From a virus (lineage: Duplodnaviria; Caudoviricetes): 63,903 nt of DNA. The translations under genes were made by a program, and so were the position numbers. Each line of letters begins with the position of its first letter. The stretch's first letter is position 1. The notes beneath the pieces were generated by a model, which did not search any database, was not told where the DNA came from, and saw only the letters and a list, made by a program, of their open reading frames with translations. Below, one piece after another: positions 2,161 through 30,100 of this stretch. The DNA lies in IMG/VR virus record IMGVR_UViG_3300042898_001199, positions 1 through 63,903 of that record; one strand, given 5' to 3'.

Positions 2161-3029
2161 CAACAAATTTACGTCTCAGTTAACAAAACGCGGTAAAAGT
2201 TTTACTCAGAAGTAAATAAATAACCGCAAAAAGGGGATCAGGGGATAACCAAATCCAAAACAAAAAGGGGGCAAGAAGTCAAATGTGAGGGGTTTCCAAT
2301 CCCATGGCCCACCCCCCTCAAGTAAATAAAATCGGGATTTGCGACCCCACCCCGGCCTAGCAGGAACCATGACCCAAGCCAAGACCTTGGTTATCAGCAT
2401 GTTGCATCCACGTTTCGCCCCTAACTTTAAGGATTGCCCAGCCAACACATTATATATGTAGCGATACATGATGTCGGCATCATACATCACACGTCAGCTC
2501 TAGCACACAGCATAGCAACCCAACAACAACAAGCCATGCAATACTATACAGCTCACACACAACGCATGCCTATTGCCCTGCAATACTACGGCATATCATC
2601 AGTCAACAAAGCCTTGACCTCAACCCCTTAGTGTATCATGTACACTTACTACGTTTTCCACATAAGCCTGTTCATAACTATAGTGTGCCGTCAACACAAT
2701 AAACCATGGCATACCTGAGTTGCGCCAAACCCTTGACCTTAGTGTACATTACACACCAACCTTAGTGTACTTCATACACATTAGCCTATTCGTTACGGCA
2801 GAAACCCTCCGCATGTGACCATTTATAAGTCCTGCCAAACCTACATTCCTTTCCTATAGACCTTCTGCATCCCTTGTCTTTGCTATGTTCTTAAAATAGT
2901 ACGAATTATTATCATTTTTTTATCATTGGTTATCAGTTAGTTACAATTTATTTTCATTTATTTTCATATGCCACACAATATAATCTAGCAATCTGCATTA
3001 TCCCTTCAAGAGCAACGGCTCGGAGCAAA

Positions 3030-3230
3030 GATTCCCTTACTGATTACTACCCGTACTGATGAGATATCAGTTGTACACAGGAGTGTTATTCGAATAGAGG
3101 TAGTAGAGGGTAGAGAGTTTAGCTAGATAGAAGTAGTACTCAACTATACTTAGCCGTCAAAGGTAACTAACTGAGCAAGGGTGTTACACGGAGAGAGTAC
3201 TAGTCACACAGGTCGGACTTAAAAGACCAA
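3030..3230 (+). ncRNA. structured leader RNA upstream of the early operon
   Basis: nested stems TACTACC/GGTAGTA, ACTGAT/ATCAGT, TAGTACTC/GAGTACTA, CCGT..GTAAC/GTTAC-ACGG, GGTC/GACC; no ORF. Confidence 0.5.
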
Positions 3231-3231
3231 A

Positions 3232-3243
3232 GTTCTTTGACAT
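3232..3243 (+). promoter_or_regulatory. boxA-like antitermination site
   Basis: GTTCTTTGACAT resembles rRNA-operon boxA (GYTCTTTRAMA) and follows a GGTC/GACC hairpin. Confidence 0.55.
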
Positions 3244-3256
3244 ATCGGTAACACAC

Positions 3257-3318
3257 TGAAACGCTTGGAGAGGTCTGCTCGTGAGAGAGGCTTTGGGGTT
3301 CGACTCCCCACGTTTCGC
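3257..3318 (+). ncRNA. tRNA-like element without an anticodon arm
   Basis: 7-bp acceptor stem TGAAACG/CGTTTCG, T-arm TGGGG-TTCGACT-CCCCA, stemless D-loop CTTGGAG, and a GTGA-tetraloop helix in place of the anticodon arm. Confidence 0.75.
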
Positions 3319-3339
3319 TAACCAATTAATACACACACT

Positions 3340-3699
3340 ATGTACAAAATTGCATTTCATCTAGCACGAGGAGTTCACTTCATGCATTGGCAAATTAAGG
3401 GAGATAACGGAGAGGTAATCTACGTTAACCCTAACGAGAGTGACATTGTTATTCACGGATGTAAACTGAAGAACCAAAGGAGTACCTCACTCAAGATTCA
3501 CCAAGGCGGTGACAAGTTCAGATGTGCTTGGGTTCAATTCGATTCATTCGAGATTGTGCCACTATCTAACTACACGTCAAAGACTCAAGTTCGTTTCAAT
3601 CCGAGGGTTAAACCTACGTGGGTTGTAGGAGGTGTTGACGAGCAGGACAACAGAGAGTTCAACGTCCTTTACACTAACCGTTCACAGCTATTTGCATAA
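3340..3699 (+). CDS. early hypothetical protein
   Basis: 119-aa ORF with TAACCAA..ACACAC leader. Confidence 0.8.
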   Translation: MYKIAFHLARGVHFMHWQIKGDNGEVIYVNPNESDIVIHGCKLKNQRSTSLKIHQGGDKFRCAWVQFDSFEIVPLSNYTSKTQVRFNPRVKPTWVVGGVDEQDNREFNVLYTNRSQLFA

Positions 3700-3752
3700 G
3701 GTTTACTGAAGAGAGTTTAATACTCGAAACGGGGGTTATCCCCGTCTAAACC
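3700..3752 (+). ncRNA. type I hammerhead ribozyme (HH1)
   Basis: stem I GGTTTA/TAAACC, core CTGAAGA, stem II GAGT/ACTC, GAAA, stem III CGGGG/CCCCG, GTC triplet; predicted cut after C3746. Confidence 0.93.
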
Positions 3753-3771
3753 AATTTAAATCAATAATGCC

Positions 3772-3879
3772 ATGGAGACTAAAATCTTAAGAATCGAGGG
3801 GAACTTTGAAGTAATCGGGTTCTTCATCAACGGAGTATTAGTACGCACTACGAAGAGACGTGTATACTCTTGGAACTAA
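3772..3879 (+). CDS. 35-aa early protein (not in ORF track)
   Basis: METKILRIEGNFEVIGFFINGVLVRTTKRRVYSWN, downstream of the HH1 leader. Confidence 0.6.
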   Translation: METKILRIEGNFEVIGFFINGVLVRTTKRRVYSWN

Positions 3880-3906
3880 AACATTAATCATCTAATACCA
3901 ATTGCC

Positions 3907-4062
3907 ATGAACTCAAATCAGAAAACCATCAACAGCCTGTCTTTACTAGGTATCGCAGGAGGACTTCTTCTAGTGAGCTTGAGCATGACCTTCTTTGGAG
4001 GAGTGTTCATCACACTATTCACCTTATCATTGACAGCTAACCTGCTGTTGCCACAACACTAA
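3907..4062 (+). CDS. 51-aa early membrane protein (not in ORF track)
   Basis: two hydrophobic segments; leader ATACCAATTGCC-ATG. Confidence 0.6.
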   Translation: MNSNQKTINSLSLLGIAGGLLLVSLSMTFFGGVFITLFTLSLTANLLLPQH

Positions 4063-4082
4063 CCAATAAATACATAGAAAAC

Positions 4083-4412
4083 ATGAACGTATTACAATTG
4101 AACATTGGGCTGAATAACAACCCTTACAGCCCTGAGGAAGTTACTCGACTACTTACTACATACTTTGACGGATTAGTGGGAGTCAGAGAACACATGGGCG
4201 AGTGGGAGGGTGAGCCTGAGCCAACGATGGTTGTTAAGATTGTTGTTGACATGGAGTATACCGATGCTTACATCATGGTCTCAACAATGGCTAGCAACTT
4301 CACTCAAGACTGCATCGCAATGAAGTTCAACGATAAAGGAACTTTGGTTTATAATGTCGATTACGAGGGGAACCCATTCGACTTCAGCGATGAATATTTC
4401 ATCGAGTTCTAG
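4083..4412 (+). CDS. acidic early hypothetical protein
   Basis: 109-aa ORF; its TAG stop overlaps the first base of HH2. Confidence 0.8.
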   Translation: MNVLQLNIGLNNNPYSPEEVTRLLTTYFDGLVGVREHMGEWEGEPEPTMVVKIVVDMEYTDAYIMVSTMASNFTQDCIAMKFNDKGTLVYNVDYEGNPFDFSDEYFIEF

Positions 4413-4471
4413 GTTAACTGATGAGTCCTGAGTGGACGAAACGTGAGGCTCTCCAGCCTCATGTCTTAACC
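4412..4471 (+). ncRNA. type I hammerhead ribozyme (HH2)
   Basis: stem I GGTTAA/TTAACC, core CTGATGA, stem II GTCC/GGAC, GAAA, stem III CGTGAGGCT/AGCCTCATG, GTC triplet; predicted cut after C4465. Confidence 0.95.
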
Positions 4472-4485
4472 AAATAATTATTGCC

Positions 4486-4722
4486 ATGAATACTGAAGAA
4501 CAACTGAAAAAAAGGCTTGCCCTTATTGAGGATGACTTGCGAGTAATTCGAGAGTTCATCTACATCCAAGGTTTGACATCGGAGTTCGAGAAATCGACCC
4601 CGTATTCTGACGAGGCTTGGGTTCACCTGAACAACATCGACATTGCATGTGACCTAAGCGATGACGAGTGCCTGACTTGGAAAACATTTACAAACTTTAA
4701 CGAACAAACTAGACCGCTATGA
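4486..4722 (+). CDS. early hypothetical protein
   Basis: ORF immediately after HH2. Confidence 0.75.
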   Translation: MNTEEQLKKRLALIEDDLRVIREFIYIQGLTSEFEKSTPYSDEAWVHLNNIDIACDLSDDECLTWKTFTNFNEQTRPL

Positions 4723-5000
4723 GCAGAATCACCAAACTTCAGAAGCAGATTGCCGATGCACACATCAGAGCAAATCGAGAGGGTTCATTCACTAACTTGA
4801 AAGTAAATTCAAAAGAGGAATTTCACCAAGCCTTGGAGAGAGGTGAGACCTACGAAATAGTCTACAAAGAAATTGTATACAGATACGCCTCGATGACTAG
4901 CCTGATAATGGCTAATGTACTAGACCACGAGAGCAAGGCTTACACACAGGCTGTGTACAAAGGATTTAAAAACGTGCTTAATTCAATCGATGTAAAATGA
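4719..5000 (+). CDS. early hypothetical protein
   Basis: ATGA-coupled ORF. Confidence 0.75.
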   Translation: MSRITKLQKQIADAHIRANREGSFTNLKVNSKEEFHQALERGETYEIVYKEIVYRYASMTSLIMANVLDHESKAYTQAVYKGFKNVLNSIDVK

Positions 5001-5209
5001 AACCGAGTTACCACAACATGAAGCTACCCATGATTAAGGGAGCAATAACCTTCCCCTGTAGGGCTAAGGTAGAACTACGCATTCAGGTATACGGAAGAGT
5101 GGTAGTGAGTGAGGTGAACTTCAGCAATGAGGTTCACGTTATGAACTACACGAAACTGATGTACCGCAAGATGATGGACGTACTGACAATTGAAAAACTT
5201 AATAACTAA
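4997..5209 (+). CDS. early hypothetical protein
   Basis: ATGA-coupled ORF. Confidence 0.7.
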   Translation: MKPSYHNMKLPMIKGAITFPCRAKVELRIQVYGRVVVSEVNFSNEVHVMNYTKLMYRKMMDVLTIEKLNN

Positions 5210-7834: not shown

Positions 7835-8239
7835 ATGAAAAAACAAATAGAAACATTAATCAGTCTAGCTCGCATGGTAGCAGACCTTCACTACAATTAC
7901 AATATCAAAGATGAGGTTGTAAACCACACGCACAACATCCGAGTAATTCAGGCTAACGAGAGAGATAATGAATTTATCGTGGTGGTATTCACTCGTAATA
8001 GACTTGATTTTAGTGTTCGTTTCTCTAACTACAGCGGAGTTAACTTGGAGTTCCCCTTCTCAGCAAATATTGAAGAGACCCTCGACCCTCTTATTGAAGA
8101 GGTGAGTGAGTCTCTGAACGAATGGCAGGCAAATAGTCAAGAGGATATAGTTCAAATGAAATTGGATGCCGTAGAGAAGAGAAGACAGACTTTGATAAAA
8201 TTAACAAACGAACTAAACGAATTGGAGGGCAAACTATGA
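7835..8239 (+). CDS. early hypothetical protein
   Basis: 134-aa ORF with TAAACCAAACACCC-ATG leader. Confidence 0.75.
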   Translation: MKKQIETLISLARMVADLHYNYNIKDEVVNHTHNIRVIQANERDNEFIVVVFTRNRLDFSVRFSNYSGVNLEFPFSANIEETLDPLIEEVSESLNEWQANSQEDIVQMKLDAVEKRRQTLIKLTNELNELEGKL

Positions 8240-8514
8240 AACACTTTGTAAAAGACATTGCAGACCAAGTAATGCTAGATGTATGTCCATCAGGAAGATT
8301 ACTAGCCTTCAACGAAGTCCATGTTGTGGATTGTGGGAACAAGAATATCAAGGTATACCTTCAAGGTGTAATTAACATGGATGAGGAGAACTTGATAATC
8401 CACACCGCAACTTACACGGATGATATGGAAGCAGATGAAGACTTGCCTGAGGACTGGAAAGAGTTCGATGACAGCGAGATTATTTATCTAGAAAAGCATT
8501 TACAATACTCGTAG
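8236..8514 (+). CDS. acidic early hypothetical protein
   Basis: last ORF before the terminator. Confidence 0.75.
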   Translation: MKHFVKDIADQVMLDVCPSGRLLAFNEVHVVDCGNKNIKVYLQGVINMDEENLIIHTATYTDDMEADEDLPEDWKEFDDSEIIYLEKHLQYS

Positions 8515-8534: not shown

Positions 8535-8570
8535 AAGAGAGGGGGTAGACTTTGTCTATTCCCTTTTTTT
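8535..8570 (+). terminator. intrinsic terminator ending the early operon
   Basis: GGGGGTAGAC-TTT-GTCTATTCCC followed by T7. Confidence 0.85.
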
Positions 8571-8761
8571 GTTTTCACTATCTTTGTAATCAATAGGTTA
8601 AACACTATCTCACTAATAAAAATACACGCTCACATGAATAAGCAAATATCACCCCGTAAAAACAACATGACTTACGCTGTAGTATACATGATGGTTGCTT
8701 TTAGAAAGCTCAGCAAAATCAACATCCAGAACGCATTTATCACAAAAAAAATTGGCCGTTT

Positions 8762-9811: not shown

Positions 9812-10681
9812 ATGTCAAACATAACAATTTCACCAAAGACGGTAATGCCGTTCATCGAACCTCGCAGAGAGGAAATGATTAAGCTGATGGGAGGAGAAGA
9901 AGTTCTCATGAGAGAGATGTCTTTCGCCATCCAAGCTGCTAACAACAACCAAGTGTTGGCAAATTCTAACCCACAATCAATTGCAATGGCTGTGTACAAC
10001 TGTGCATTGACCAAGTTGTCTCTGAACCCTGTAATGAACCTAGCTTATCTAGTTCCTTTCAAGGGCAACGCGAAGCTAATGCCAGGATATCAGGGGATGA
10101 TTAAGCTTATCTCTGACACAGGGATTATCAAGTCGGTATCTTCGGCGGTAGTTTATCGAGGGGACGATTTTGACTTTGTTCAGGGGACTAGCCCGGAGAT
10201 TATACACAAGCCTAAGGGTGAGACCTTCAAGAACAGCGATGTCATAGCCGTGTACGCAATCTTCGTACTACACAATGACGAGAAACTGTTCGAGATTATG
10301 TGGAAGCCTCAGATTGATGCCATCAAGAACCGATCGGAGACAGGGCGTAAAGATGAAGGGCCGTGGTCTACAGACTACGGGGAGATGGCACGCAAGACGG
10401 TTGTCAAGAGAGGTTGGAAGTCTATACCGAAATCATCTTTCGCACTAGACAAGATTGAGAAGGTTAACACGGCTATCAGCATCGACAACGAGGAGTACAA
10501 GACAGTCGAGTATGTTAAGATGAGCGAGGAGCAAATCGAGAGACTGCTTGAGAAGACAACCAACGTGGTAGAACTTGAGGCTGCACTATCTGACGAGTCG
10601 GTGATGATCGATCCAGAGCAGAAGAAAGAAATCATAGAGAAAGCTAAAAACAAAAATAAAAAAGGAGGTGACGATGAGTAA
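9812..10681 (+). CDS. recT: RecT-family ssDNA annealing recombinase
   Basis: LSLNP..LAYLVPF..GYQGMI and PWSTDYGEMARKTVVKR motifs. Confidence 0.9.
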   Translation: MSNITISPKTVMPFIEPRREEMIKLMGGEEVLMREMSFAIQAANNNQVLANSNPQSIAMAVYNCALTKLSLNPVMNLAYLVPFKGNAKLMPGYQGMIKLISDTGIIKSVSSAVVYRGDDFDFVQGTSPEIIHKPKGETFKNSDVIAVYAIFVLHNDEKLFEIMWKPQIDAIKNRSETGRKDEGPWSTDYGEMARKTVVKRGWKSIPKSSFALDKIEKVNTAISIDNEEYKTVEYVKMSEEQIERLLEKTTNVVELEAALSDESVMIDPEQKKEIIEKAKNKNKKGGDDE

Positions 10682-17117: not shown

Positions 17118-17366
17118 TTATTTTTCTTCTTCGGATGGTGTGTCATCCTTCTTCTTGTATCGCGTAAAGATACTCTCAATAACCGTAAGTCCCAAACCTC
17201 CTCCTGCTATGACAAGAAGTCCCTCAAACATATAGTCAGGGCATCTGTATGAAGTGAATGTGGCAATGTACGCAAGCGATATGCAAACGAGTAAAGATAA
17301 TAAAGCACTGACTCTTTTTGTACTCGCATCTCCTTCAGAACTTAGTAGTGATTTTATCCATTTCAC
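17118..17366 (-). CDS. holin-like membrane protein
   Basis: two TM segments, STKR motif, charged C-terminus, next to the putative endolysin. Confidence 0.6.
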   Translation of the reverse strand: MKWIKSLLSSEGDASTKRVSALLSLLVCISLAYIATFTSYRCPDYMFEGLLVIAGGGLGLTVIESIFTRYKKKDDTPSEEEK

Positions 17367-17536
17367 TTCTTTTTAGCCATTTTAATTATGGTGTAAATAG
17401 AGGCTATACCGGATAAGAAGAGGCAAAACATTTTAAGAGCAAACTCAACATCCAACAACCATGCTGGAACTGATAATAGAATGCTGCTGATTGTACCCGT
17501 TACCCCTTCCGCTATTTGTTGTTGGTGGTTGCTCAT
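17363..17536 (-). CDS. 57-aa membrane protein, holin/antiholin candidate (not in ORF track)
   Basis: hydrophobic ORF ending MAKKK, coupled to both neighbours. Confidence 0.6.
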   Translation of the reverse strand: MSNHQQQIAEGVTGTISSILLSVPAWLLDVEFALKMFCLFLSGIASIYTIIKMAKKK

Positions 17537-18095: not shown

Positions 18096-18127
18096 CAAAT
18101 TTACGTCATTTTGTTATTTGCTTTCAA
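18096..18127 (-). promoter_or_regulatory. promoter for the lysis cassette, probably leaderless
   Basis: TTG-N21-TAAATTTG ending 5 nt before ATG 18090. Confidence 0.6.
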
Positions 18128-21100
18128 TTTTATTGTCAATAATCTTGAAATAATTAGTTTTTATAGGCTTAACATTTGTCAACTTCTTATTGTATTGATA
18201 CAAGTCGTAGTAATATCTTTCTAAAGCTTGTTGACCACCTGCCTCACTAGCTTCATACTTACTGTAATCAGTATCTGTTTCAATTGATTTAGTGATGTAA
18301 TCAGACACTTCTTGATCGTATTCCTCTTTAGAGAATCCCTCTAAGAATTTACCTAACGCAACATCATCAAGGAAAGTTAAGTTTTCAAAGTTTAACTTAG
18401 GATAATCAGCAGGATCAACATCATACTTCAACTTCTTCTTAGCGTCAAACTTTGCCTTCTCAGCTAAGAATTTAATTACCGCATATTTACCCTCATCATT
18501 TCTATCTTTCAAGGCATATCTATTATTCTTCAACTCATCTTGTATGTAGTTCTTGAACATTGATGTAGCCTCTTGAGTCAGAGCTTCAGATCTTTCTTTT
18601 CTCTTTTCTGCTGAGACAAATTTAGAGTTGTCTTGTACAGACAAAACACCTACACCGTTCTGATCAAAGTTCAACACACCAGCTACCAAGTTGTATTTAC
18701 CGTCAGATGATAAAATAACTACGTCTTGTTGAATAGCAACCTCATCTTGAAGCGACTTGATAAAGTCTCTAGAGAATGGAATTTGCTTACCATCCATAGC
18801 AAGTATTAAGTTCGTTGCCATGATCGTAGCGGAAAGCATTTTATTTAGGTCTGCTGTTTCTTCGTTGAACAATTTACCACCCTCTTCCCATAAGTCATAA
18901 ATAGTTGCCTTGTTGTGTCCTGGCTCATCAAGATAATCTTTATATAACTTTTGAGCTTCTTGCATCAACATATATACTGGAGGAACGCTAGTTGCAAATG
19001 CTAAAGCGGCATACTTTTCTACAGCATCATATTTTTCAAAGTCAATACCTTCTGTAAAATAAAGAGATTGTAGAACTTCATCAATAGGTTGTCTTTCTGC
19101 ACCTTTCATATTTCTAGCAAACTGCAATAAAGATATAGCCATCGCTCTACCAGAAGCACCGTATCTAGAGGTGGTTACATTGGCCGCTAGATTAATACCC
19201 ATAGAGGCGATCATCTTCCACATCTTGTCCGGGTTAGTAAACATTTCTAAAGTTTCTTCACCTTTTTTCTTTTCCTTGTCATCATCACTAAAGAAAGCTC
19301 TTTCAATACCTTTTACAGCAGCAAATATCACAGTATACATAGTCAAACTTGTAGCTGAAGTGGCAAATTTAAATAATCCTCTTCCTAGATCTGCTCCCTT
19401 ATTCATCCGGTCATCCTTAGTGATACCTCTTCCAGCTCTCTTAGCTCCGTAAAGCATGTTGCTAACGTCTCTGTATACAAAGTTGTTGAATAAGTTAAGC
19501 ATTTGAGCGACAGTATCATTTGATGATACAAGACCTTTACTAACGTCAGATTTGCTTCCCTTGCCTGTCAATGCCATTTTAGGTATACTAAACAAATCGG
19601 GCAACCATCTGTAGTTTGCTCTTGCCTGACCTTTGAATGAACCACCTTTAATAGATTGAATTCTCTGATCTGCAAATGAGGCAGCCCTATCTAAATCATA
19701 TTTGTAATCACTATCATCAAAATGTTTAGCTTCAGAATAATCTTCGCCAGTTAAACGCTTGAACTCTGATCTAAAATAAGACATCCATTCCCCAGGAGTT
19801 AATGGTGCTGTTAAGTTGTGCAATGAAGCGATTGAGTTTTCTAATTGCTGAGAGAAAGTATTCTTTGTAAGGTTTCCTTTCTTAGTAGTTACCTTGACCT
19901 TAAAATCCCAGTTTAAATTAGCTACAGGGCTGCCAAATTTCTCCATAAGATTTTTAGCCTCTCTGTAAGACTTGGGGTCAAAACCTCTAAGGCTTAAAGT
20001 TCTAAAAATACCAGAACCTATATTTGTTAAAGTCTCAGCTGCTGTTCTTCCAATACCAATCAAAAGTTTAGCCGCAAAAGATTTTGTCAACTTTGTTAAG
20101 AAGTTATTTGCAGATCTGCTTAATTGATGGTCAACACGATTTCTGTTTGACTGTTGAAGAGCGTTTAATGTTTTGACATCTGCATCTCTTCCTTCCGCTC
20201 TAGCCGCCTCTCTTGCGTTTTTAAACACTTCATTAACGTAAGATATTGCGTTGCTAATATAGAAATCTCGTGCAGATTCAAAGGCGTTGTTTGCCACAAG
20301 AGAATCAACATTGAATTGTAATGGCCCAGCAGGATCTTTTGACACACGACTGTAAGATGACTGAGATCTAACAGTACCTCCAACAGCACCACCATATCCA
20401 AGCTCAACATTAGAGTCTTCAGACATTCCCTTTCCAATATATCTACGAGGAGAGAAGAACTCTGTCAGCTCACCATTAACACCTCTTACAGCGTTAGCGT
20501 TGATAATTAACTCGCCAGAAGTTCTGTTGGCCTCTCTAAATGCACTGTAAAGCTTTTGCTCGCTCTCAGACATCAAAGAAGAAGGGTCGTTAAGATAAGC
20601 TTCGTATATCTTTCTATAATCTAACTTGCCGTTCGTTACAAATGCAGGGTTAGATATTAAGTTGTTGTATACGTCTTCTACGATATTCAAGACACCTTCC
20701 TCATCGTATATCGCACGCTCGATAGAATCTTCTTTTAGCTGATTGCCTAACCAGTCATTCGTATTCTCGTTATACTGATAAGCTTTATGACCTGAGTCAA
20801 GGATATGAGAGAGTATACCAACTCTGTGTTTGAAATATTTCTTAGCACTTACAGAACCTTTTGCAGTCTTAACTCTATCTTTTAAGAATAAGAATTTACG
20901 ATTTGCAAATGATAAGTCAGCAGTTTTCTTGTAGTAAGAATCTAATATCTGATTTACCTTATCGCTCATCTTCTTAAACGATCTGTCGATAGGAGCAACA
21001 ACATATTGATATAAAGCATCTCCTTCTTTCAATCCAAGAACGTCTTCCCATTGGGCAGCCTCTTCAGACGATAACTTTCTCAACAAAAGATTAACCCCTT

Positions 21101-24100
21101 TCGTTAACTTTTTATAAATATCACCTAGTTGATTTACAATTCTTAATCCAGCCTCTTGCGATCTAATCTCAACACGATTAACCATTTCACGAACTTCCTT
21201 TTCCGGCATGAAGCCGTACTCCATTCTGTCTAAAGCTTCGTTTAATTTTAACAAGTCTTTTACATCTAAGTTCATTAACTCGTTAGCAGACAAGCTTCTT
21301 AATCTTTCAAACAAGCTTTTTTGCTCACCAACAAATAAATCGTTAGTAGTAATGCTTGAAATCTTCTGGAACAAATCATCTGTCAAACCTTCTTTCAAAG
21401 TGTCAATTTGATCTTGATGATTTGCCTCATAGACTCTCAGCCCATTTTCCATAGTGTAAAGATCTCCTGAGGCCCATTGCTCGTGTGTAGCGGCATCAAT
21501 TAACCCCTGGTTATACAGCGAGTCCAAAATTCTTTTAGCCTTGTTTACAGATCTTACAAATGCGGTATACTCCTCTAGCGTGTCAATAGGCATAGACTTG
21601 ATATCTGTTAGTAGATCAAAATAATCTGCCGGCAGAAATTCTTTCTTGCCTAAATCTGCGCTAAAAGCCTTGTCAGCCAAAGACATATCTAATCCCGTAT
21701 GATCAGGAACCGGCTTTGCCAATCTAGCAACCGCGTCTAAATAACGATCCATCTCTGCATCAGTCAATAGAGGATTGTTGTCCGTGTCAAACAAAGGAAT
21801 AGATACGAATCTTAAAACATCTTCTGTAAATTCATTGTGCCTTCTCTTAAGGGCTGTCTTTCTATTAGAAGCTAAAGCATCCATTTTAGCAGCAAACTCC
21901 TTGTTAGCAACAATCTTATCAACATACTGTATGAAGTTGTCAATTTGCTTGTCTGTAAGAGATGTCACTGCACCTGTAGCTCTGTTTACAATAGCTGAAA
22001 TTTGCTGGCTATTCAACCCACTCAGTTTAGCTAATTTTAAATATTCCTTAACAAAGTATCTAAAACTATTACGTTTGTTTTTCTCGTCAGCCTTAGCTTG
22101 CTTAATATTTTCTTTTGTTTGAGATAATTCAGTTCTCAGTTCTTTTAGTTTTTCTTTTAACTTAAACACATCAGGCTTTTCATCACCTCTCTTAGCCTTA
22201 AGTTCAGCCTTGTTTATTTTATCCCACTGTGCATTTACAGCGTCTTTTAACTCGTCAACCGTAAAGAACTCCATGCCATCTCTTGTGGCATCAGCAAATG
22301 CTTTTTCTATAGCAATAGCTTTTGAAGAGTTATCCATTTCGGAATATATCTTAGCAACAGTAGCAATATCTTCAGCTAATTTATTTTTTAAGTCCCTTTC
22401 AATATTCTCCTCAAACTCTCTTTTTTTCCAAGAAGACATATCTCTAAAGCCTTTAATCTTTCTAGCTTTAGCAATCAAGTCATTTACTGTATTTAAAATA
22501 CCAGCACCTTTCCTTACCTTATCCGCAGACTCGTCAAGAAGTAAACTGTATTCCAATTTATCACTATTATTCATTTGAAGTTTAGTAGTGATGTTTTCCG
22601 ATTTGCCTGTTGAGGTTTTATTTTTCTCAGCCAATACTTCGTTAGCCTCAAACATTTCTAAAGCTGGGTTGAACTCAATAGAAGAAGGATAATCTTTATC
22701 AGGTCTCTGATAAAACTCTCCCTTCATTTTCTCAGTTGTCTCAGCTCTTAAATCTTCACCCCACTTAACAACAATCATTGGATAACCTAAATTAGCCGCT
22801 TCTTGAGCAATGAATGCAGCTTGTTTATTAGGATCAAAAGCCTGGCCTGGATACATCTTCTCAAACGTAGCTTTTGCCGCATCATATAAGTTCAATGGAT
22901 CCTCATTAAAAGGATACACATTATCTTTAGGTATTCTTACAACATAACCATATTTACCTGATACATCTAATACGTCAGGTCGAGTGTAGTACATGCTGAT
23001 ATTTAACCCCGGTCTTTCGTCTTTTCCTGTTCTTGAGGTGTTTTTACCAAAGTACTTAGGATCGATAGAAGATATTTTATTTGGAGAGTAGTGGTAGAAC
23101 AAGTAATTACCTTGGTCATCCTCGGTCATATGCTTAGTTAACTTAGCATTGTCTACTAAAGATTTAACTTGAGACTTAGACACGAAATTTTTAAATCCTT
23201 CCGTATCTTTTTTGGAACCTAATACATGAACTTGTTTATTTGAATCAACCGCTATCTGATCCATCTCTGGAGTTAGCTCGTTAAATTTCTGGTATGCAGG
23301 CAATCCGTTCTCATCAACCGGCCCAACATATTCACCTATATATGTATTATTTTCACCTTCCGTTTTAAAGTCAACATAATTATCTTTATCAAGACCCTTG
23401 TAAGCAATAATAGCGTCAGCACCGTTTGTTACTTTAGAAACAGTCAACTCTTTAAGACCTGCGTATCCTCTTCTCCAGTTGGCATCTATATCAACTACAT
23501 GAAAATTATTAACATTAAGAATTGCAGCTGAAATTCTACCTTTGCCACCACCTGTATAGTCAGCAGATTTATTTTTATTAAGTGTCCAATATAAACCCTT
23601 GCCTAAGTTCTTAGCCCCTGTACCTTTTTCAGGATCTAAGTCTTCCGCTTCAATCATATCTGAATTTTCAGATCCTCTGTAAAAGATATTTTGCAATAAA
23701 CTTTTTGGGAAAATATTTTTGAGGTACTCGGCATATTTTTCAACTGTCCCAATAGATTTTAATTCGGGATTTTGTTCAAACACTTCGTTTAAAACTGCAC
23801 GTTGAGTATCATCTATTTGAGATTTAACTTGAGCTTTATATTTTATACCAGTATTAATTCTAACTACTGAATAAGGTATATTTCTAGCTCCTGCAAAATT
23901 AGCCGCATATTCTAAATCTCTTAAAGGAGTATTATCATTTTCAATTTTTTCTGATGTTCTAACTTCACCATCTTTTACTGAAGATAAAATATCTTTATAA
24001 TTTTTCCTTTCTGATAACATATGGACAGTTACTCTTTGGCCGTCTTCTGTTTTCATTACTCCTGGATAAGAAATGTGTTTTCTTTTTTTCGCTGGAATAT

Positions 24101-27100
24101 CAGACTCGTCTTCAACAATTAATTTAGAAGGTATTTCAATATAAGCAACTGCCGATTCAATAGGAGCGTTTTCCATAAAACCTTCTTCCTGTACATTGCC
24201 TAATCTTTTAGTTGCGGCATCAACTGTTATTTTACCGCTTTTATTTAATGGGATATTTAACTTCTTAGATAAACTACTAAAGTCAATTTCATTAGATTTA
24301 AATATTTCAGCTATAATTTTCTTCCCAACATCAACTCTTTTCTTAAAGGTTTCATCGTTAGAGTTTATAAAGTAGTCTTTAATAACACTATGAAGTTCTT
24401 TTGCGCTTAATTTTCCGCTAAATAATTTGATCCCCTCATTATCTTTTTCTTCTTTAACTGCCGTATTTAAAGCATTTCTAAATACACTTAATGGTATATC
24501 ACCATCTTGAACTGCTAACTCTAAAATATCTATAGCAGCAGCCATACCATCTCGACTACTTAATACTTTTAAATCTGTTGATTTAAATACAACTACTCTC
24601 ACAGGCTTGCCTGGGTATTTGTCAAATATTTTATTTACTAAATTGATAAATGTTTTTGACATCTTAGGAGTTGAAGCCCAGAATGTACCGTCTTTATTAT
24701 ATTTAATAGCAAAGTGCAAACCTCCATTTCCTTCTAATACTACTCTCTTATCTCCTTTTTTATACTTAACGCCATCAACTTCCGTGTCTTTGTCATAAGT
24801 GCCGTAAGATAAATCTCCAACCATTTTATTATCAGGGAACATTGATATTACGACCTCACCCTCTAACTCTTCAATCTTTGCATTTTGAACTAAATACCCC
24901 TCATCTTCCAATTTTTTCAAATCAGATGCAGGTATAAGATTAGCTTCAAAATTTCCACCTAATGAATATTTTGACTTTACTTCATCAGACGTGTTAACGT
25001 TTTCAGCAAATTTATTATCAAGTTTTATTTTTTGACCATAGTAAACTTTGCTTGCAAAAGTCTGGAAGAATTCCATAATCTCTTCTGGAGAAGATGTATC
25101 GTCAATAGGCTTAAGATCAGGGCCAAAATACTTAGCAATAAGTTGGTTGATATACTCAGCAATAGACTTTAAGAAAGATTTATTAGCAGGATCAGACTCT
25201 TTTAATTGAGACAATAAAGCTGTAACCTCAGAAACATATTCCTCAGCACGCTCAACATCGCTATACTCTTCATTAGAAGCTAAATCAGCAGCGATCTCAT
25301 CTATTGATATCTCAAATGGAACGCCATCTTTATCTAAGGCTATTAGTTTTTTACCCTTAGCAAGATCTGCTATTTTATTTTTAAACTGAGCGTATAACTC
25401 AGGCTTATCTCCAAACATTTTAAACAATAGAGCGTGAGTCATCTCATGCGCTACAGTACGAAGATTAGCAGACTCTAAATTAATCGCAATAACTCCAGTT
25501 TCTTCCCCAGGAAGAATTGTGAATAAACCTCTTGAGTCAGCATTAGCACCAACAGAGTTAGCGTAATTTTTAAAATCACTTTCATTATCAAAAACAATAA
25601 TGTTAAAGTTAGGAAGCACAGACTTTAATGTTTTTAAAGCCTTGACAACTTGAGCTACTACTCTCTTCTGAGTAGGGGTCTTTGCCACTTTTGCTAACTC
25701 CTTAGCTCTGTTGTTATCAGAAACATTATATCCGGTAGTATTTGCTTGGTTTAAAATATCGTCTGTTGTAGGCTGAACGTTTTCTTCATTAGAAGTCTCT
25801 ATTTTATTGCCATCCTTATCGAGCAAAGTATCAAAGTCGTATTCTATAGCAAAGTCTACTTTCTCACCAGCTACATTCATCGTGCTGTAATTATCTCCTT
25901 GAGATTCAAACTTCTCGGCTCCCTTGATTCTAGGATGGTAAGATCCATCTTGAAATACTAATCCGTCATGGGCAGCTACAGACTCTTGATCAAATTCTAT
26001 TGCAAAAGCAACAGCGTCTTCTCTAGACAAATTAGGAACAAAGAAACTAAGTTCTGAATTACCATACTTGCCAAATGCACCGTCAGTAGAGTAACCTCTT
26101 TCTTCTAGCCAAGATTTAGCAGCCTCATTTCTTTTAGCGTTTTCTTCATCGCTAAGAGATTTTCTTTGAGGGTTCCAAGCTGTAAGAAGACCAAATACAC
26201 CGTTCTTAATCGTTTCTATAAATGAATTACGGTCAGGAAAAGAAGACTCCGGTAAATTTGCTATAGCATTCTCATCCCAAGCCTCGTCTCTAACTATTTC
26301 TGGGGTGTTGGTTTCTGTTCCTGGAGTTTGCTCAGATTTAACTTCACGCAATAGAGGGGTGATAAGAGCATCGTATTTATCATAGATAGGCTTATAGATA
26401 GCGTACAAATCATCCGGCATGCTGCCTTGTGTATCACCTTTTGTATCTGAATAATTGTCTATATCAGGTATCGCATTACGAAGATCTTCCTGTTCTCTAG
26501 CTCTTAGATCAGCTATGTCTTGATCTTTGTTTTCTTCAACAGGCTTAACCTTTTCTTCTTCATCTTTTTGTTTATTAGCCTGCTCTCTTGCTTTTAACAA
26601 TTGAGCGTTGATTAATTCTTTTGCCTTAGGTAGATTTTCTTCAACCATACCTCCAGATACTTCAGGAGCAAAGTTCACTTCTTTAACAGTGCCATCTTGA
26701 TTCATTGAATAAGAAACCACACCTAGCTCAGAAAGAGAATTAACGAGAACGTCTGACGATTGTCTTCTCTTTTGATCAGCATTAAATGCAGTTAATATCT
26801 TATTATCTAATTCTTCAATTTTTGCAGTAGACTCCACGTCAACTATGCCTAATTTTTCAGCTTCTTTAGTCGCTTGAACTAGTTTGCCTTTTTGAATGTA
26901 TAGGTCTAAAATCTCAGCCTTGGCCAAGTCTCCAGCTTTCTTAAAAGGAATTACTCTTTCTAACTCTTTATAAGTATTGTTAACCTTTTGGAAGTCCTTA
27001 TACTGATCAGTTTCTTTTACATCGGCATTTCTCTTTTCAGCTTGAGCTAAAATTTCCTTGCCGTTTTTACCAACCTCTAATTGCATGAATTTCAAACCAG

Positions 27101-30100
27101 CAGTCTTATCAGTTTTTTCTGAAATAACTTCTGCGGTAGTTGCTATAGATGCGCTAGCTGTTCCGATTAAAGCCCCGATGGCCCCTTGAACTAAAACTTC
27201 TTTAGCCGCCTCAGGAAGAGTGTCATTTTTAATTTCTGCTAAATTCATGATTGTAGACTCTACAACACCAGAAGTTATCTCTTCCCCAGCTTCTTTTGTA
27301 CCTTGAGAGAACACTTTAAACCCAGCATTTCTAGTTATTTCGTATGCGTTTGCAAGAAGTGCCTTGGAAATTTGTTGAGCAGATAAACCATCAGCTAATC
27401 CTCTAGAAATGATTTGAGCTGAATTCTTTTTAATAGTAATTCCCACAGCGTCCGGAAGTTCAGGTACTAAAGCTTCAATAGAAGCTAGTGTGCCTGCTGT
27501 CAAGGTTCCGTACAACATTGCTAATCCTTTGTCATACCCAGCGTCTTCAAATTGCTTAACCATATCTCCTTCCATTACAAGGAAGTTATATGTAATAACT
27601 CCTGCTGCGCCAAAAGACATGGATGCTCCTACATTATACACTAGATTTGGCACTTGAGATATAGCGTTGCTATACCACCACATTCCACTATACTCTTCTA
27701 AATAAGGATTGACAGCCATTTCTGACCATCTTGTTTTTCTAAACTGAGTATTTTGCATATTTGCATCTACCTCGTCCCAAGTATTACTATCATCTGTAAA
27801 CACAGATTCAATAACATTATACGTTTGAATAAAACCTTCCCCAATATTTTTATTTGCAGTGAAAATAGTTTTCACTGTTGATTCAAGAATATTATCCTCT
27901 TTAGCACTTTTTTTCAAATAAGCGTTCCACTCGTCTTCTTTTAATTTTGCAGCGGAATATGCTCCTGAATATCCGCCACCAGAAACTACAGAATATTGAG
28001 GGTTTTCACGAAGATTAATATCTAAATTGTCAATAGTATATTTAATTGATTTTAAATCAGCAAAACCTTTATCTTTAGACACGATATTCAACTTAGAACT
28101 TAAAAAAGCAATCTCTTCGTAATCTTCTTTATGATCATCATAAAACTTTTGAAGCTTACCAGCGTCTCCACCAAGTGACTTGCTAGACTCAACTATCTTA
28201 TTTCTTTCTTCTATTAATTGTTTTTGTTTAGCGAGAATCTCGTTAACCTTATCAGAATTCTCATTTTTAATATAAGATTCTCCCTTTTCATTTTTGTCTA
28301 AATAGGGTTGAAGTTCGCCTTCTAACTTATCTAATTGATTTATTTTTTGATTAACTAAATCTAATAATTCTTGAGCTTTATTTTTATCAACACCATCCTT
28401 AAGGTGCAATCCATCTTCTTGAACATCATAATACTGTTCAATCTCTTTAGATATTTCCTGAACCTCTGTATTAAGTTTTGTTAAATCCTCAGAAATCTTC
28501 GCAGCTTTTGCCGATCCGTCAGTAGATTTCAAAATAATCTGATTGTCAACAACATCGGCATATTGAGCTAGCTCAGTTTCTGTTTCTTTAATGGATTTAT
28601 CAAAGTTTGAAATAAGCTCATTGTTTTTCTTAATCTCTTGTAGGTTAATATCTAATTCAGATTTATCTATATCTAATTTAGATTCTTCATCTGCAATTTT
28701 ACTATTTAAATTTTCTAATCTTCGAGAGTCTTTATCAGCAGTTCTCAAAGCACCAGATGATTTCAAGTCATCCGTCTTTAAATATGCAGATGCACTATAA
28801 AAAGATGTTACATCATTTAAAGCAGATCTTCTAATATTCATAGCCCATTGAGCATCTGCTTGAAAACCTTTATCCATTTCACCATACCCTCTTCCGGCAA
28901 CATTGTTTTCATGAATTTGCTTCATGTGATCAAGATCCTCTTGCTTAAACTTACCAGTCTCAATACCTTTTTCGATGTATTTTAAATCCATGTAATAAGC
29001 AACGTCCTCGTTCAATTTATTGTAAAGATCATCAGCAGCTTTAGCTTTTGCCTGTGCTTCTAATTCCTTAACTTTTGCAAAATCATATTCAATCGGATTG
29101 CCAAATTGATCTACCTCTGGCAACTTAACATTCTGAACGTATTCAGAGTTTGCAATTAAGCGTTTTAAGTCATTTTGATTGCCAATTAAAAACTCTTTTG
29201 GAGAGATGCCCATGCCACTCAATATTTGAGCAGATTCAGACACATTTATATTGTTGAAGAAATCTTCGTCAATTTTATCAACATGTGCGTTGTTAGTAAC
29301 TATTTGCTCTGCACTCTCTCTATTTTTTCTTTTATTAATACCAGCAAAGAAAGTTCCTTCTCCAGGACGGCCAAGTATACCTCCAAGAATGTTAAACTTG
29401 CCGTCTAAAGATTTAGCTTGAGTTTTTTGGACTTCCTTGTTTTTCTTGATCGTGCCTCTAAGAACATCCATAAATGTTTTAGGAGCATTCTCGTCAGCTG
29501 TAGCTACTACTTCCTGCTCTCCCATCAAACCTTCAATGGTTCCTAAGTTATATTGCCCTTGGTGTTTAGTCAAGGCCAAGTCTACAAGAGCTGTAGCGGA
29601 GTTTTCATCCCATTCGGGATTACTAGCTCTAATCTCTTCCTTAAGTTTAGTTTCTTCCTCAGCACTCATGCCGTGAAATAAAGAAACTGTTTTTCTATTA
29701 AGGTCATTCCACGCATCATCATTACCAGTGTAATTACGAATAGTAGAAGAAGATTTTTTGATATAATCATTATAAACAGCGTCACCCACTTGGCCTGTGT
29801 AGTTATTTGCTGTTTTTTTAGCTTTAGTTACATAATCTTTTGAGTAATCGCTTTCTTCATTTTCAGAGAAGTATACAATTTCATAAGTGCCATCTGCATT
29901 ATCCTTATACCCCAATATCTGATCAACTCCATATTCAGGACCTTGATCTACACTCGGGTCGTTTTTTCTTGCAAATGAAAATTTCTTTTGCTTTTCCTTT
30001 TTTTTTCTGCCTGGTTTTTCCGGGTCATCAACTTCTATATCTTCCTCCACAACTTCTGGCTCTTCAAAAAATCCTCCCCCTGTTGATTGGGAAAGTAAAT

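Follow-up and report, generated by a model that had tools for sequence, protein, structure and literature searches.

Analysis of the sequence confirmed that 53 bases of the genome of an uncultured phage (3700-3752, + strand), together with a second copy downstream (4412-4471, + strand), are hammerhead self-cutting motifs lying between small phage genes. We put the probability at roughly three in four that both sites, termed HH1 and HH2, are active type I hammerheads in one + strand message, each cutting after C17, and they probably sever the long phage message shortly before the next gene begins. The genome, called the window below, corresponds to an entire IMG/VR virus record (63,903 bp), with a G+C content of 37% and an estimated completeness of 96%. 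Hammerheads between phage genes are a kind of element known since 2011. New here are HH2, a subfamily missed by Rfam, its conserved A flanks and loop II, stop codons built into the ribozyme and its fixed distance from the start codon that follows; such copies may be listed in the supplementary alignments of Perreault et al. 2011 (PLoS Comput Biol, PMC3088659).

Structure of the two motifs

HH1 was identified as a type I hammerhead by direct reading, folding and a descriptor search. The sequence-only reading had claimed that all hammerhead core nucleotides were present, with a 6-bp stem I, a 4-bp stem II and a CGGGG/CCCCG stem III, and direct reading bore this out. In stem I, 3700-3705 pairs with 3747-3752 (6 bp), and the core strand CUGAAGA occupies 3706-3712. 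Stem II pairs 3713-3716 with 3722-3725 (4 bp, with a G-C closing pair) around loop II, UUAAU (3717-3721), and GAA lies 3' of it at 3726-3728. Stem III pairs 3729-3734 with 3740-3745, where an A3729-U3745 pair extends the CGGGG/CCCCG helix. C17 is position 3746 in a GUC cleavage triplet, and the predicted cut falls between 3746 and 3747. The Watson-Crick pairs adjoining the core are also present, namely G3713-C3725 (10.1-11.1) and A3705-U3747 (1.1-2.1). The minimum-free-energy fold was the three-way junction, both for the 53 nt alone and in a 121-nt context, with an ordinary folding energy (z -1.65 for the 53 nt, 12 of 200 shuffles folding as well; z -0.53 in the 121-nt context).

HH2, a type I hammerhead found by the descriptor, supported by folding and absent from the sequence-only reading, lies 712 nt downstream of HH1 on the same strand. 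Its stem I (4412-4417 with 4466-4471) differs from that of HH1 at one position, and the sequences of stems II and III differ between the two copies. The core CUGAUGA occupies 4418-4424. Stem II, GUCC/GGAC, pairs 4425-4428 with 4434-4437 (4 bp) around loop II, UGAGU (4429-4433), and is followed by GAA (4438-4440). Stem III pairs 4441-4450 with 4455-4464 (10 bp), beginning with A4441-U4464. C17 is position 4465, the predicted cut falls between 4465 and 4466, and the core-adjoining Watson-Crick pairs are G4425-C4437 and A4417-U4466. In a 121-nt context, the minimum-free-energy fold kept the hammerhead, with z -4.02 and none of 200 shuffles as good. The same 121-nt fold contains a 7-bp helix that pairs the end of the upstream ORF (4382-4388) with bases past the downstream start (4491-4497). 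This helix spans the cut site, so a cut at HH2 would part its strands.

Chance, terminator and Rfam searches

The descriptor fixed the core letters and required three stems, with no stem sequence fixed. On the window it returned two sites, HH1 and HH2, both on the + strand, and looser stem and loop limits added none. Across 300 dinucleotide-preserving shuffles of the window, it matched twice, both times at minimum stem lengths (about 0.007 per window), and never with stems as long as those of HH1 and HH2. A terminator scan of 2400-5200 found none at either hammerhead and none on the + strand over 3340-5200; its sole terminator-like site was on the - strand (4726-4714). No T-run follows the hairpins of HH1 and HH2.

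These results bear on the reading that the motif is a chance match, or that its G+C-rich hairpin is a mere terminator or protein-binding stem. The ordinary folding energy of HH1 and the sub-threshold Rfam scores given below are what such a reading would predict. The two observed sites, however, far exceed the frequency in shuffled windows, the core is kept and the stems covary in more than 100 copies, and a terminator does not fit hairpins that lack a T-run at two sites where the scan was blank. We give this reading practically no credence.

At gathering thresholds, Rfam gave no match in the whole window, none in nine relatives without a copy and none for the copies in eight relatives, and to the extent that Rfam detects, relatives without the hammerhead have no ribozyme of another class in its stead. 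Rfam in E-value mode returned five weak, unrelated matches over the whole window and no hammerhead. The check proposed with the original motif, a search with Hammerhead_1 (RF00163), came out weakly. On 3650-3800 the alignment ran from end to end of the motif (model positions 1-45), with the same topology and core, but it scored 13.5 bits against a cut-off of 34 (E 1.5 on 151 nt); no copy was reported at gathering thresholds, whether in the window or among 17 related loci. The best Rfam match on 3650-3800 was RAGATH-1-hammerhead (RF03152), at 21.2 bits against a cut-off of 56.3 (E 0.12). The copies resemble RF03152 in a short A/U-rich stem I ending UUA/UAA, a long G+C-rich stem III and the GUC triplet. 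They differ from it in a regular 4-bp stem II, where the model consensus has a single closing pair, and in having coding sequence, with no conserved counterpart, where the model has an upstream hairpin and A/U linker; the 5' hairpin of RF03152 was matched solely by two weak pairs within that upstream coding sequence. The sub-threshold scores reflect a sensitivity gap of the models and do not count against the motif.

Relatives, covariation and features of the subfamily

With RecT (9812-10681) as the query, we collected 50 loci of related phages whose RecT is 82-96% identical. The descriptor found 15 more copies in 9 of these RecT-linked loci, all on the RecT/gene strand. A covariance model, R1, was trained on 14 copies, and it scored HH1 at 69.0 bits and HH2 at 68.7 bits, both being members of the training set. 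Applied to the window plus the 50 loci (633,518 nt), R1 gave 20 sites, all on the + strand and 18 of them outside the window, and it also recovered copies outside its training set (L004, L010:500 and a pair in L007). Near-identical orthologues of HH1 occur in L005, L007 and L020, with differences confined to N7, the loops and H17. Seven loose matches to the 5' half of the motif (two in L025 and one each in L027, L031, L033, L035 and L039) were without stems II and III and were set aside as chance. With 3000-4500 as the query, blastn found nothing among GenBank phages.

In the alignment of the R1 set (18 distinct sequences), 99.6% of the cells were paired and 11 of 15 pairs had changed on both sides, counts that lean towards the structure because the alignment was fitted to R1 itself; with the partners slid as a control, 29-43% were paired. 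The core columns of alignment A1 were invariant save N7. We then scanned IMG/VR with a 5'-half pattern, which returned at least 119 stretches, and examined 80 loci. Among the matches listed, all 80 loci hold a complete hammerhead (116 copies), with up to 7 copies per locus, and elsewhere 5 copies lie within 1.7 kb. For the 107 distinct sequences among the matches listed, 99.4% of the cells were paired and 10 of 15 pairs were compensatory, again in an alignment fitted to R1 and with the stem I 5' strand fixed by the pattern itself, and the slid control gave 25-43%. Stems II and III of these listed matches use all four Watson-Crick pair types. The full set of type I features, the second copy and the compensatory stem changes in relatives support the hammerhead identity that had been proposed for HH1.

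The copies share features that set them apart as a subfamily. Stem I reads GGTTAA or GGTTTA in 15 of the 17 descriptor matches, where stem I was unconstrained. Among 115 parsed copies, stem II has 4 bp in 101, loop II is mostly 5 nt with the form U-N-A-N-U, and H17 is either C (87 copies) or A (28). In the set of 126 distinct flanked copies, A precedes stem I (-1) in 121, and the bases after stem I are A in 122 (+1) and 105 (+2), G being rare there. Stop codons do not account for the A at -1, because it is also present in 57 of 57 copies whose upstream ORF reads through that position.

The sequence-only reading had seen no loop for the contact that stems I and II usually make. Stem I indeed has no loop and no bulge, and we found no Watson-Crick pseudoknot, so there is no evident sign of the tertiary contact that fast cleavage at low Mg2+ requires, making activity at cellular Mg2+ uncertain; against that claim, the flanks of stem I and loop II are conserved throughout the family. 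In natural hammerheads, the stem I/loop II contact sits where the A flanks and loop II of this subfamily are conserved. The A flanks and the U-N-A-N-U loop may therefore form a candidate tertiary-contact motif.

Gene junctions and the geometry of stop and start codons

HH1 fills a gene junction, as had been read from the sequence. The upstream ORF of 119 aa (3340-3699, +) ends in a TAA (3697-3699) that abuts the ribozyme. On the other side, an A/U-rich leader that begins with AA and has no Shine-Dalgarno motif (3753-3771, +) separates HH1 from the ATG at 3772, where sequence reading places a small ORF of 35 aa (3772-3879, +), the first gene past the HH1 cut. HH2 follows an ORF of 109 aa (4083-4412, +) that matches phrog_11722 and whose TAG stop (4410-4412) lends its G as the first base of HH2 stem I. 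A 14-nt A/U-rich leader (4472-4485, +) then runs to the start codon at 4486 of a 78-aa ORF taken from the ORF list (4486-4722, +), the first gene past the HH2 cut, which had no Pfam match. The 119-aa ORF had a sub-threshold Pfam match to Phage_L5_gp82 (19.8 bits, cut-off 27), and a homology search of viral contigs found no relatives for this ORF or for the 109-aa ORF. The neighbours of HH1 and HH2 may be early genes, judging only from small ORFs that adjoin recombination genes.

The ribozyme stands at only 2 of about 14 spaced junctions in the + strand operon of the window. Ribozyme-free + strand junctions (3319, 4060, 6578, 7821 and 9583) share a ...TAACCAAT(A/T)AAT...ATG motif, and the hammerhead looks like an addition immediately 5' of this standard leader. 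Within the 119-nt gap after the ORF at 8236-8514, a hairpin with a T-run near 8535-8572 (+) probably terminates the + strand unit to which both hammerheads belong.

The region ahead of this unit was also inspected. About 700 nt without an ORF (2640-3339, +) precede the first + strand gene. Within it, 3250-3325 holds a T-arm-like GGGGTTCGACTCCCC inside GAAACG/CGTTTC, and then CTAACC directly followed by AATTAAT. The 17-nt T-arm-like string was absent from the other 50 loci, and a tRNA at this position was rejected, as ARAGORN found none in the window and an Rfam tRNA-like match reached just 16.5 bits. In the divergent stretch that separates the - strand genes from the + strand genes (2607-2779) lie three repeats of CCTTAGTGTA(C/T) and two of CAAA(G/C)CCTTGACCT, which could be operators, promoters or an origin.

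Across the family, the distance to the next gene is narrowly set. In 118 of the 126 flanked copies, an ORF of at least 30 aa begins 10-28 nt past the ribozyme, most commonly at 13-18 nt. Across these 126 copies, A and U dominate the leader and G is scarce, so that it has no Shine-Dalgarno motif. An open frame lies upstream in 121 copies, and for each of these we recorded where the last base of its stop codon falls relative to the ribozyme's first base. At 0 (15 copies), the stop abuts the ribozyme; at +1 (19 copies), a UAG borrows the first G of stem I; at +6 (33 copies), a UAA lies in the GGU-UAA of stem I; at +10 (20 copies), the stop is the UGA of the CUGA core; and at +20 (4 copies), it lies deeper within the ribozyme. 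The upstream gene thus stops inside the ribozyme in 57 of 121 copies, and in the window the positions are 0 for HH1 and +1 for HH2.

With a stop codon at or in the ribozyme, terminating ribosomes should unfold it, which counts against constant cutting. This geometry would suit a translation-coupled switch, in which the terminating ribosome melts the ribozyme and cutting is confined to the time ahead of the first ribosome or to weak translation of the upstream gene. The stops at 0, +1, +6, +10 and +20 are placed as such a switch would need, but tight gene packing alone would put them there, no conserved alternative structure came to light, and the idea takes its basis from inferred ribosome footprints. 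We regard a switch of this kind as improbable, and cutting of the message ahead of the next gene remains the preferred reading.

Presence and mosaicism among related phages

Two of five near-complete relatives carry copies (one and two, respectively), and three have none; two of the copy-free relatives are 100%-complete genomes with terminal repeats. Together with its absence from most junctions of the window's own operon, this indicates that the ribozyme is dispensable. The 171 pairs formed by 19 hammerhead junctions included 18 with homology on one side only (10 downstream, 8 upstream) and 3 with homology on both. At the level of sequence comparison, this shows that homology between phages often ends at the ribozyme, as an association and not a cause, hammerhead junctions being the only ones compared.

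Public sequencing runs provided further junctions. Three of the six RNA-labelled runs listed share a small fraction of the sampled words with the window (0.05-0.08), all as contigs, and comparison of four public runs yielded five contigs of relatives from three runs, which cover neither ribozyme and show no RNA ends. The region 3754-3880/3957 is present in relatives' contigs from RNA-labelled runs, a presence that is no proof of transcription. In one relative's contig (X2, record 4), position 3323 is joined straight to 3754; a second (X3, record 5) begins at position 3754, with sequence resembling that at 3323 just in front. These joints mark a block of leader, 119-aa ORF and HH1 (3324-3753) as an indel whose ends fall between ...AACC and AA, that is, between the 3' end of stem I and the leader. 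In addition, two R1 matches, L014:2082-2134 and L020:3549-3592, are 5' halves of hammerheads (stem I strand, core, stem II and GAAA) fused to unrelated sequence, with the 3' strand of stem III missing. They have the look of fragments left by recombination within a ribozyme.

Such observations raise another reading, in which ribozyme and leader form a portable junction cassette that persists via swapped modules. It would supply stops in two frames, a conserved palindromic joint (GGUUAA...UUAACC) at which phage recombination occurs and the standard leader; cleavage would be possible without being the selected function. The one-sided homology of junction pairs, the indel, the half-hammerheads, the occurrence of the TAACCAAT...ATG motif at ribozyme-free junctions and the differing presence among close relatives are all consistent with it. 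A bare joint, however, needs no intact core, no invariant A at -1 and no compensatory changes in stems II and III (107 distinct copies), and these three features point to selection on the RNA fold. Gene-boundary breakpoints are, moreover, usual in mosaic phages regardless of content. We consider it unlikely that the element persists as a joint in this way, and cutting of the message stays our preferred reading.

A further possibility is that two cuts free gene-length RNAs that are re-joined, by reversal of the hammerhead reaction or by a host ligase, into circular or spliced RNAs. Stem I is nearly fixed, as in the 15 of 17 descriptor matches above, while stems II and III vary, and a near-identical stem I would let any freed 5' end dock on any upstream ribozyme. 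The arrays of up to 5 copies in 1.7 kb would also suit this idea, which is raised in the accessible part of Perreault et al. 2011 (PMC3088659). The same part of that paper states that no spliced or circular products could be detected. In the window, the one-position mismatch between the stem I sequences of HH1 and HH2 hampers cross-docking, and the relatives' public-run contigs show no back-joints, the sole joint being the skip from 3323 to 3754. A built-in stop, the leader and a tertiary contact are simpler causes of stem I conservation. We find re-joining very hard to credit beside plain cutting of the message.

Host and a cultured relative

The window encodes a portal protein, a large terminase, a primase/helicase, RecT, an exonuclease and a PAPS-reductase-like protein. 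One ORF (18114-30527, -) is giant, at 4137 aa, and in it Pfam found DUF3293 at residues 1448-1517; a sub-threshold S-AdoMet lyase match overlaps that stretch, and there was no other Pfam match. The large terminase matched 80 GenBank phages, all distantly (best identity 26.8%), 79 of which infect Flavobacterium, Cellulophaga, Tenacibaculum or Maribacter. These matches and the leaders without a Shine-Dalgarno motif suggest that the host belongs to the Bacteroidota.

The 5'-half pattern occurred at 56 loci in 185,579 species genomes, and R1 gave 51 matches at E <=0.01, which fall in a minority of the loci; the remaining loci, without an R1 match at E 0.01, were discarded as chance pattern matches. 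The R1-positive loci are mostly labelled Bacteroidota, and two copies lie in a complete Paraflavitalea chromosome; some of these loci are small MAG contigs labelled otherwise, and the labels give no firm host range.

Of three whole phage records searched, one holds a copy, Flavobacterium phage vB_FspP_elemoA_7-9A (NC_055852.1). The copy (17290-17347, -) scored 44.2 bits and ends 22 nt before the start codon of gp69. Its stem I is GGCAAA/UUUGUC, which indicates that the sequence of stem I can change while its pairing is kept. RefSeq places a 35-aa hypothetical protein, gp68, exactly over this hammerhead (17275-17382; locus L175, 1476-1583) and opposite to all its neighbours; gp68 is probably a spurious gene call. 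Our literature search found no paper pairing a hammerhead with a Flavobacterium phage, and none on the present gene-junction arrangement in the accessible text of work on RAGATH-1 hammerheads.

Proposed function

From the observed motif, its conservation and covariation, the stop and start geometry and the variable presence, we infer transcription through the sites, cleavage and effects on stability or translation, as follows. One long + strand message would span from upstream of 3340 to the terminator-like hairpin near 8535-8572. Each ribozyme would fold upon transcription and cut after C17 co-transcriptionally. The upstream fragment would carry a 2',3'-cyclic phosphate and keep the stem II and stem III hairpins at its 3' end, while the downstream fragment would begin with a 5'-hydroxyl and the six former stem I bases, followed by the 14-19 nt A/U-rich leader without a Shine-Dalgarno motif and then the start codon. 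A polycistronic transcript would in this way be converted into shorter messages with defined ends, independently of the host, and the stability or translation of the flanking genes could then differ.

In T7-type phages, RNase III sites between genes process the long early transcript into messages with stable hairpin ends. The hammerheads are like these sites in being structured RNA at gene junctions that would yield shorter messages. Unlike them, they would not need a host enzyme, and the predicted self-cut would leave 5'-hydroxyl and cyclic-phosphate ends.

Comparison with known hammerheads

The accessible part of Perreault et al. 2011 (PMC3088659) describes clustered type I, II and III hammerheads flanking genes of prophages and phages, three prophage arrays that cleaved during in vitro transcription, and a halovirus hammerhead that stands 13 nt ahead of a start codon and has a 5' end mapped close to its cut. 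It proposes that long phage transcripts are cut into gene-length messages. The co-transcriptional cut predicted here agrees with that proposal, with the in vitro results on the prophage arrays and with the halovirus case. In what is accessible of them, reviews still call the role of phage hammerheads unsettled (PMC6765202). Like the arrays described there by Perreault et al. (PMC3088659), the copies studied here have a canonical core, are clustered so as to flank single genes or short blocks, lie on the gene strand and have inconstant flanking genes. They differ from those descriptions in three respects. Stem I is open, exactly 6 bp long and near-fixed as GGUUAA/UUAACC or GGUUUA/UAAACC; invariant A flanks and a 5-nt U-N-A-N-U loop II stand in place of pseudoknot or loop-loop contacts; and upstream stop codons are built into the ribozyme.

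A paper in Nucleic Acids Res 2026 (PMC13725137) reports, in its accessible part, that type I hammerheads of RNA viruses fill small intergenic regions and cut a few nucleotides before a start codon, and it links them to translation initiation; matches in DNA bacteriophages were set aside there as previously described. The phage copies are likewise type I, lie in a junction and would cut shortly before the next start codon. The systems in that text, unlike ours, are RNA viruses infecting eukaryotes, and a translation role for the phage copies would be hypothetical.

Significance

A large, coherent subfamily is missed by the curated Rfam models and consequently goes unannotated. Its A flanks and U-N-A-N-U loop offer a candidate motif for a tertiary contact, and vB_FspP_elemoA_7-9A with its host, Flavobacterium sp. 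BAL314, forms a cultured pair carrying a related copy, in which cleavage could be mapped.

A bolder and rather doubtful proposal is that the subfamily serves phages of non-Shine-Dalgarno hosts as a universal gene separator, uniting stop, cut, leader and exchange joint in one cassette. The upstream ORF would be ended by the UAA in stem I, the UGA in the core or a UAG made with the first G, and the cut would leave a 5'-hydroxyl A/U-rich leader of about 16-34 nt for translation of the next gene. If this were true, the near-palindromic GGUUAA...UUAACC ends would be joints of gene exchange, efficient downstream translation would need cleavage, and the cassette would account for both the expression and the mosaicism of small early genes.

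For the reading we prefer, in which HH1 and HH2 cut the phage message just ahead of the next gene, the fixed stop and start geometry in more than 100 copies turns "mRNA processing" into a specific idea that can be tested on ribosomes and on 5' ends.
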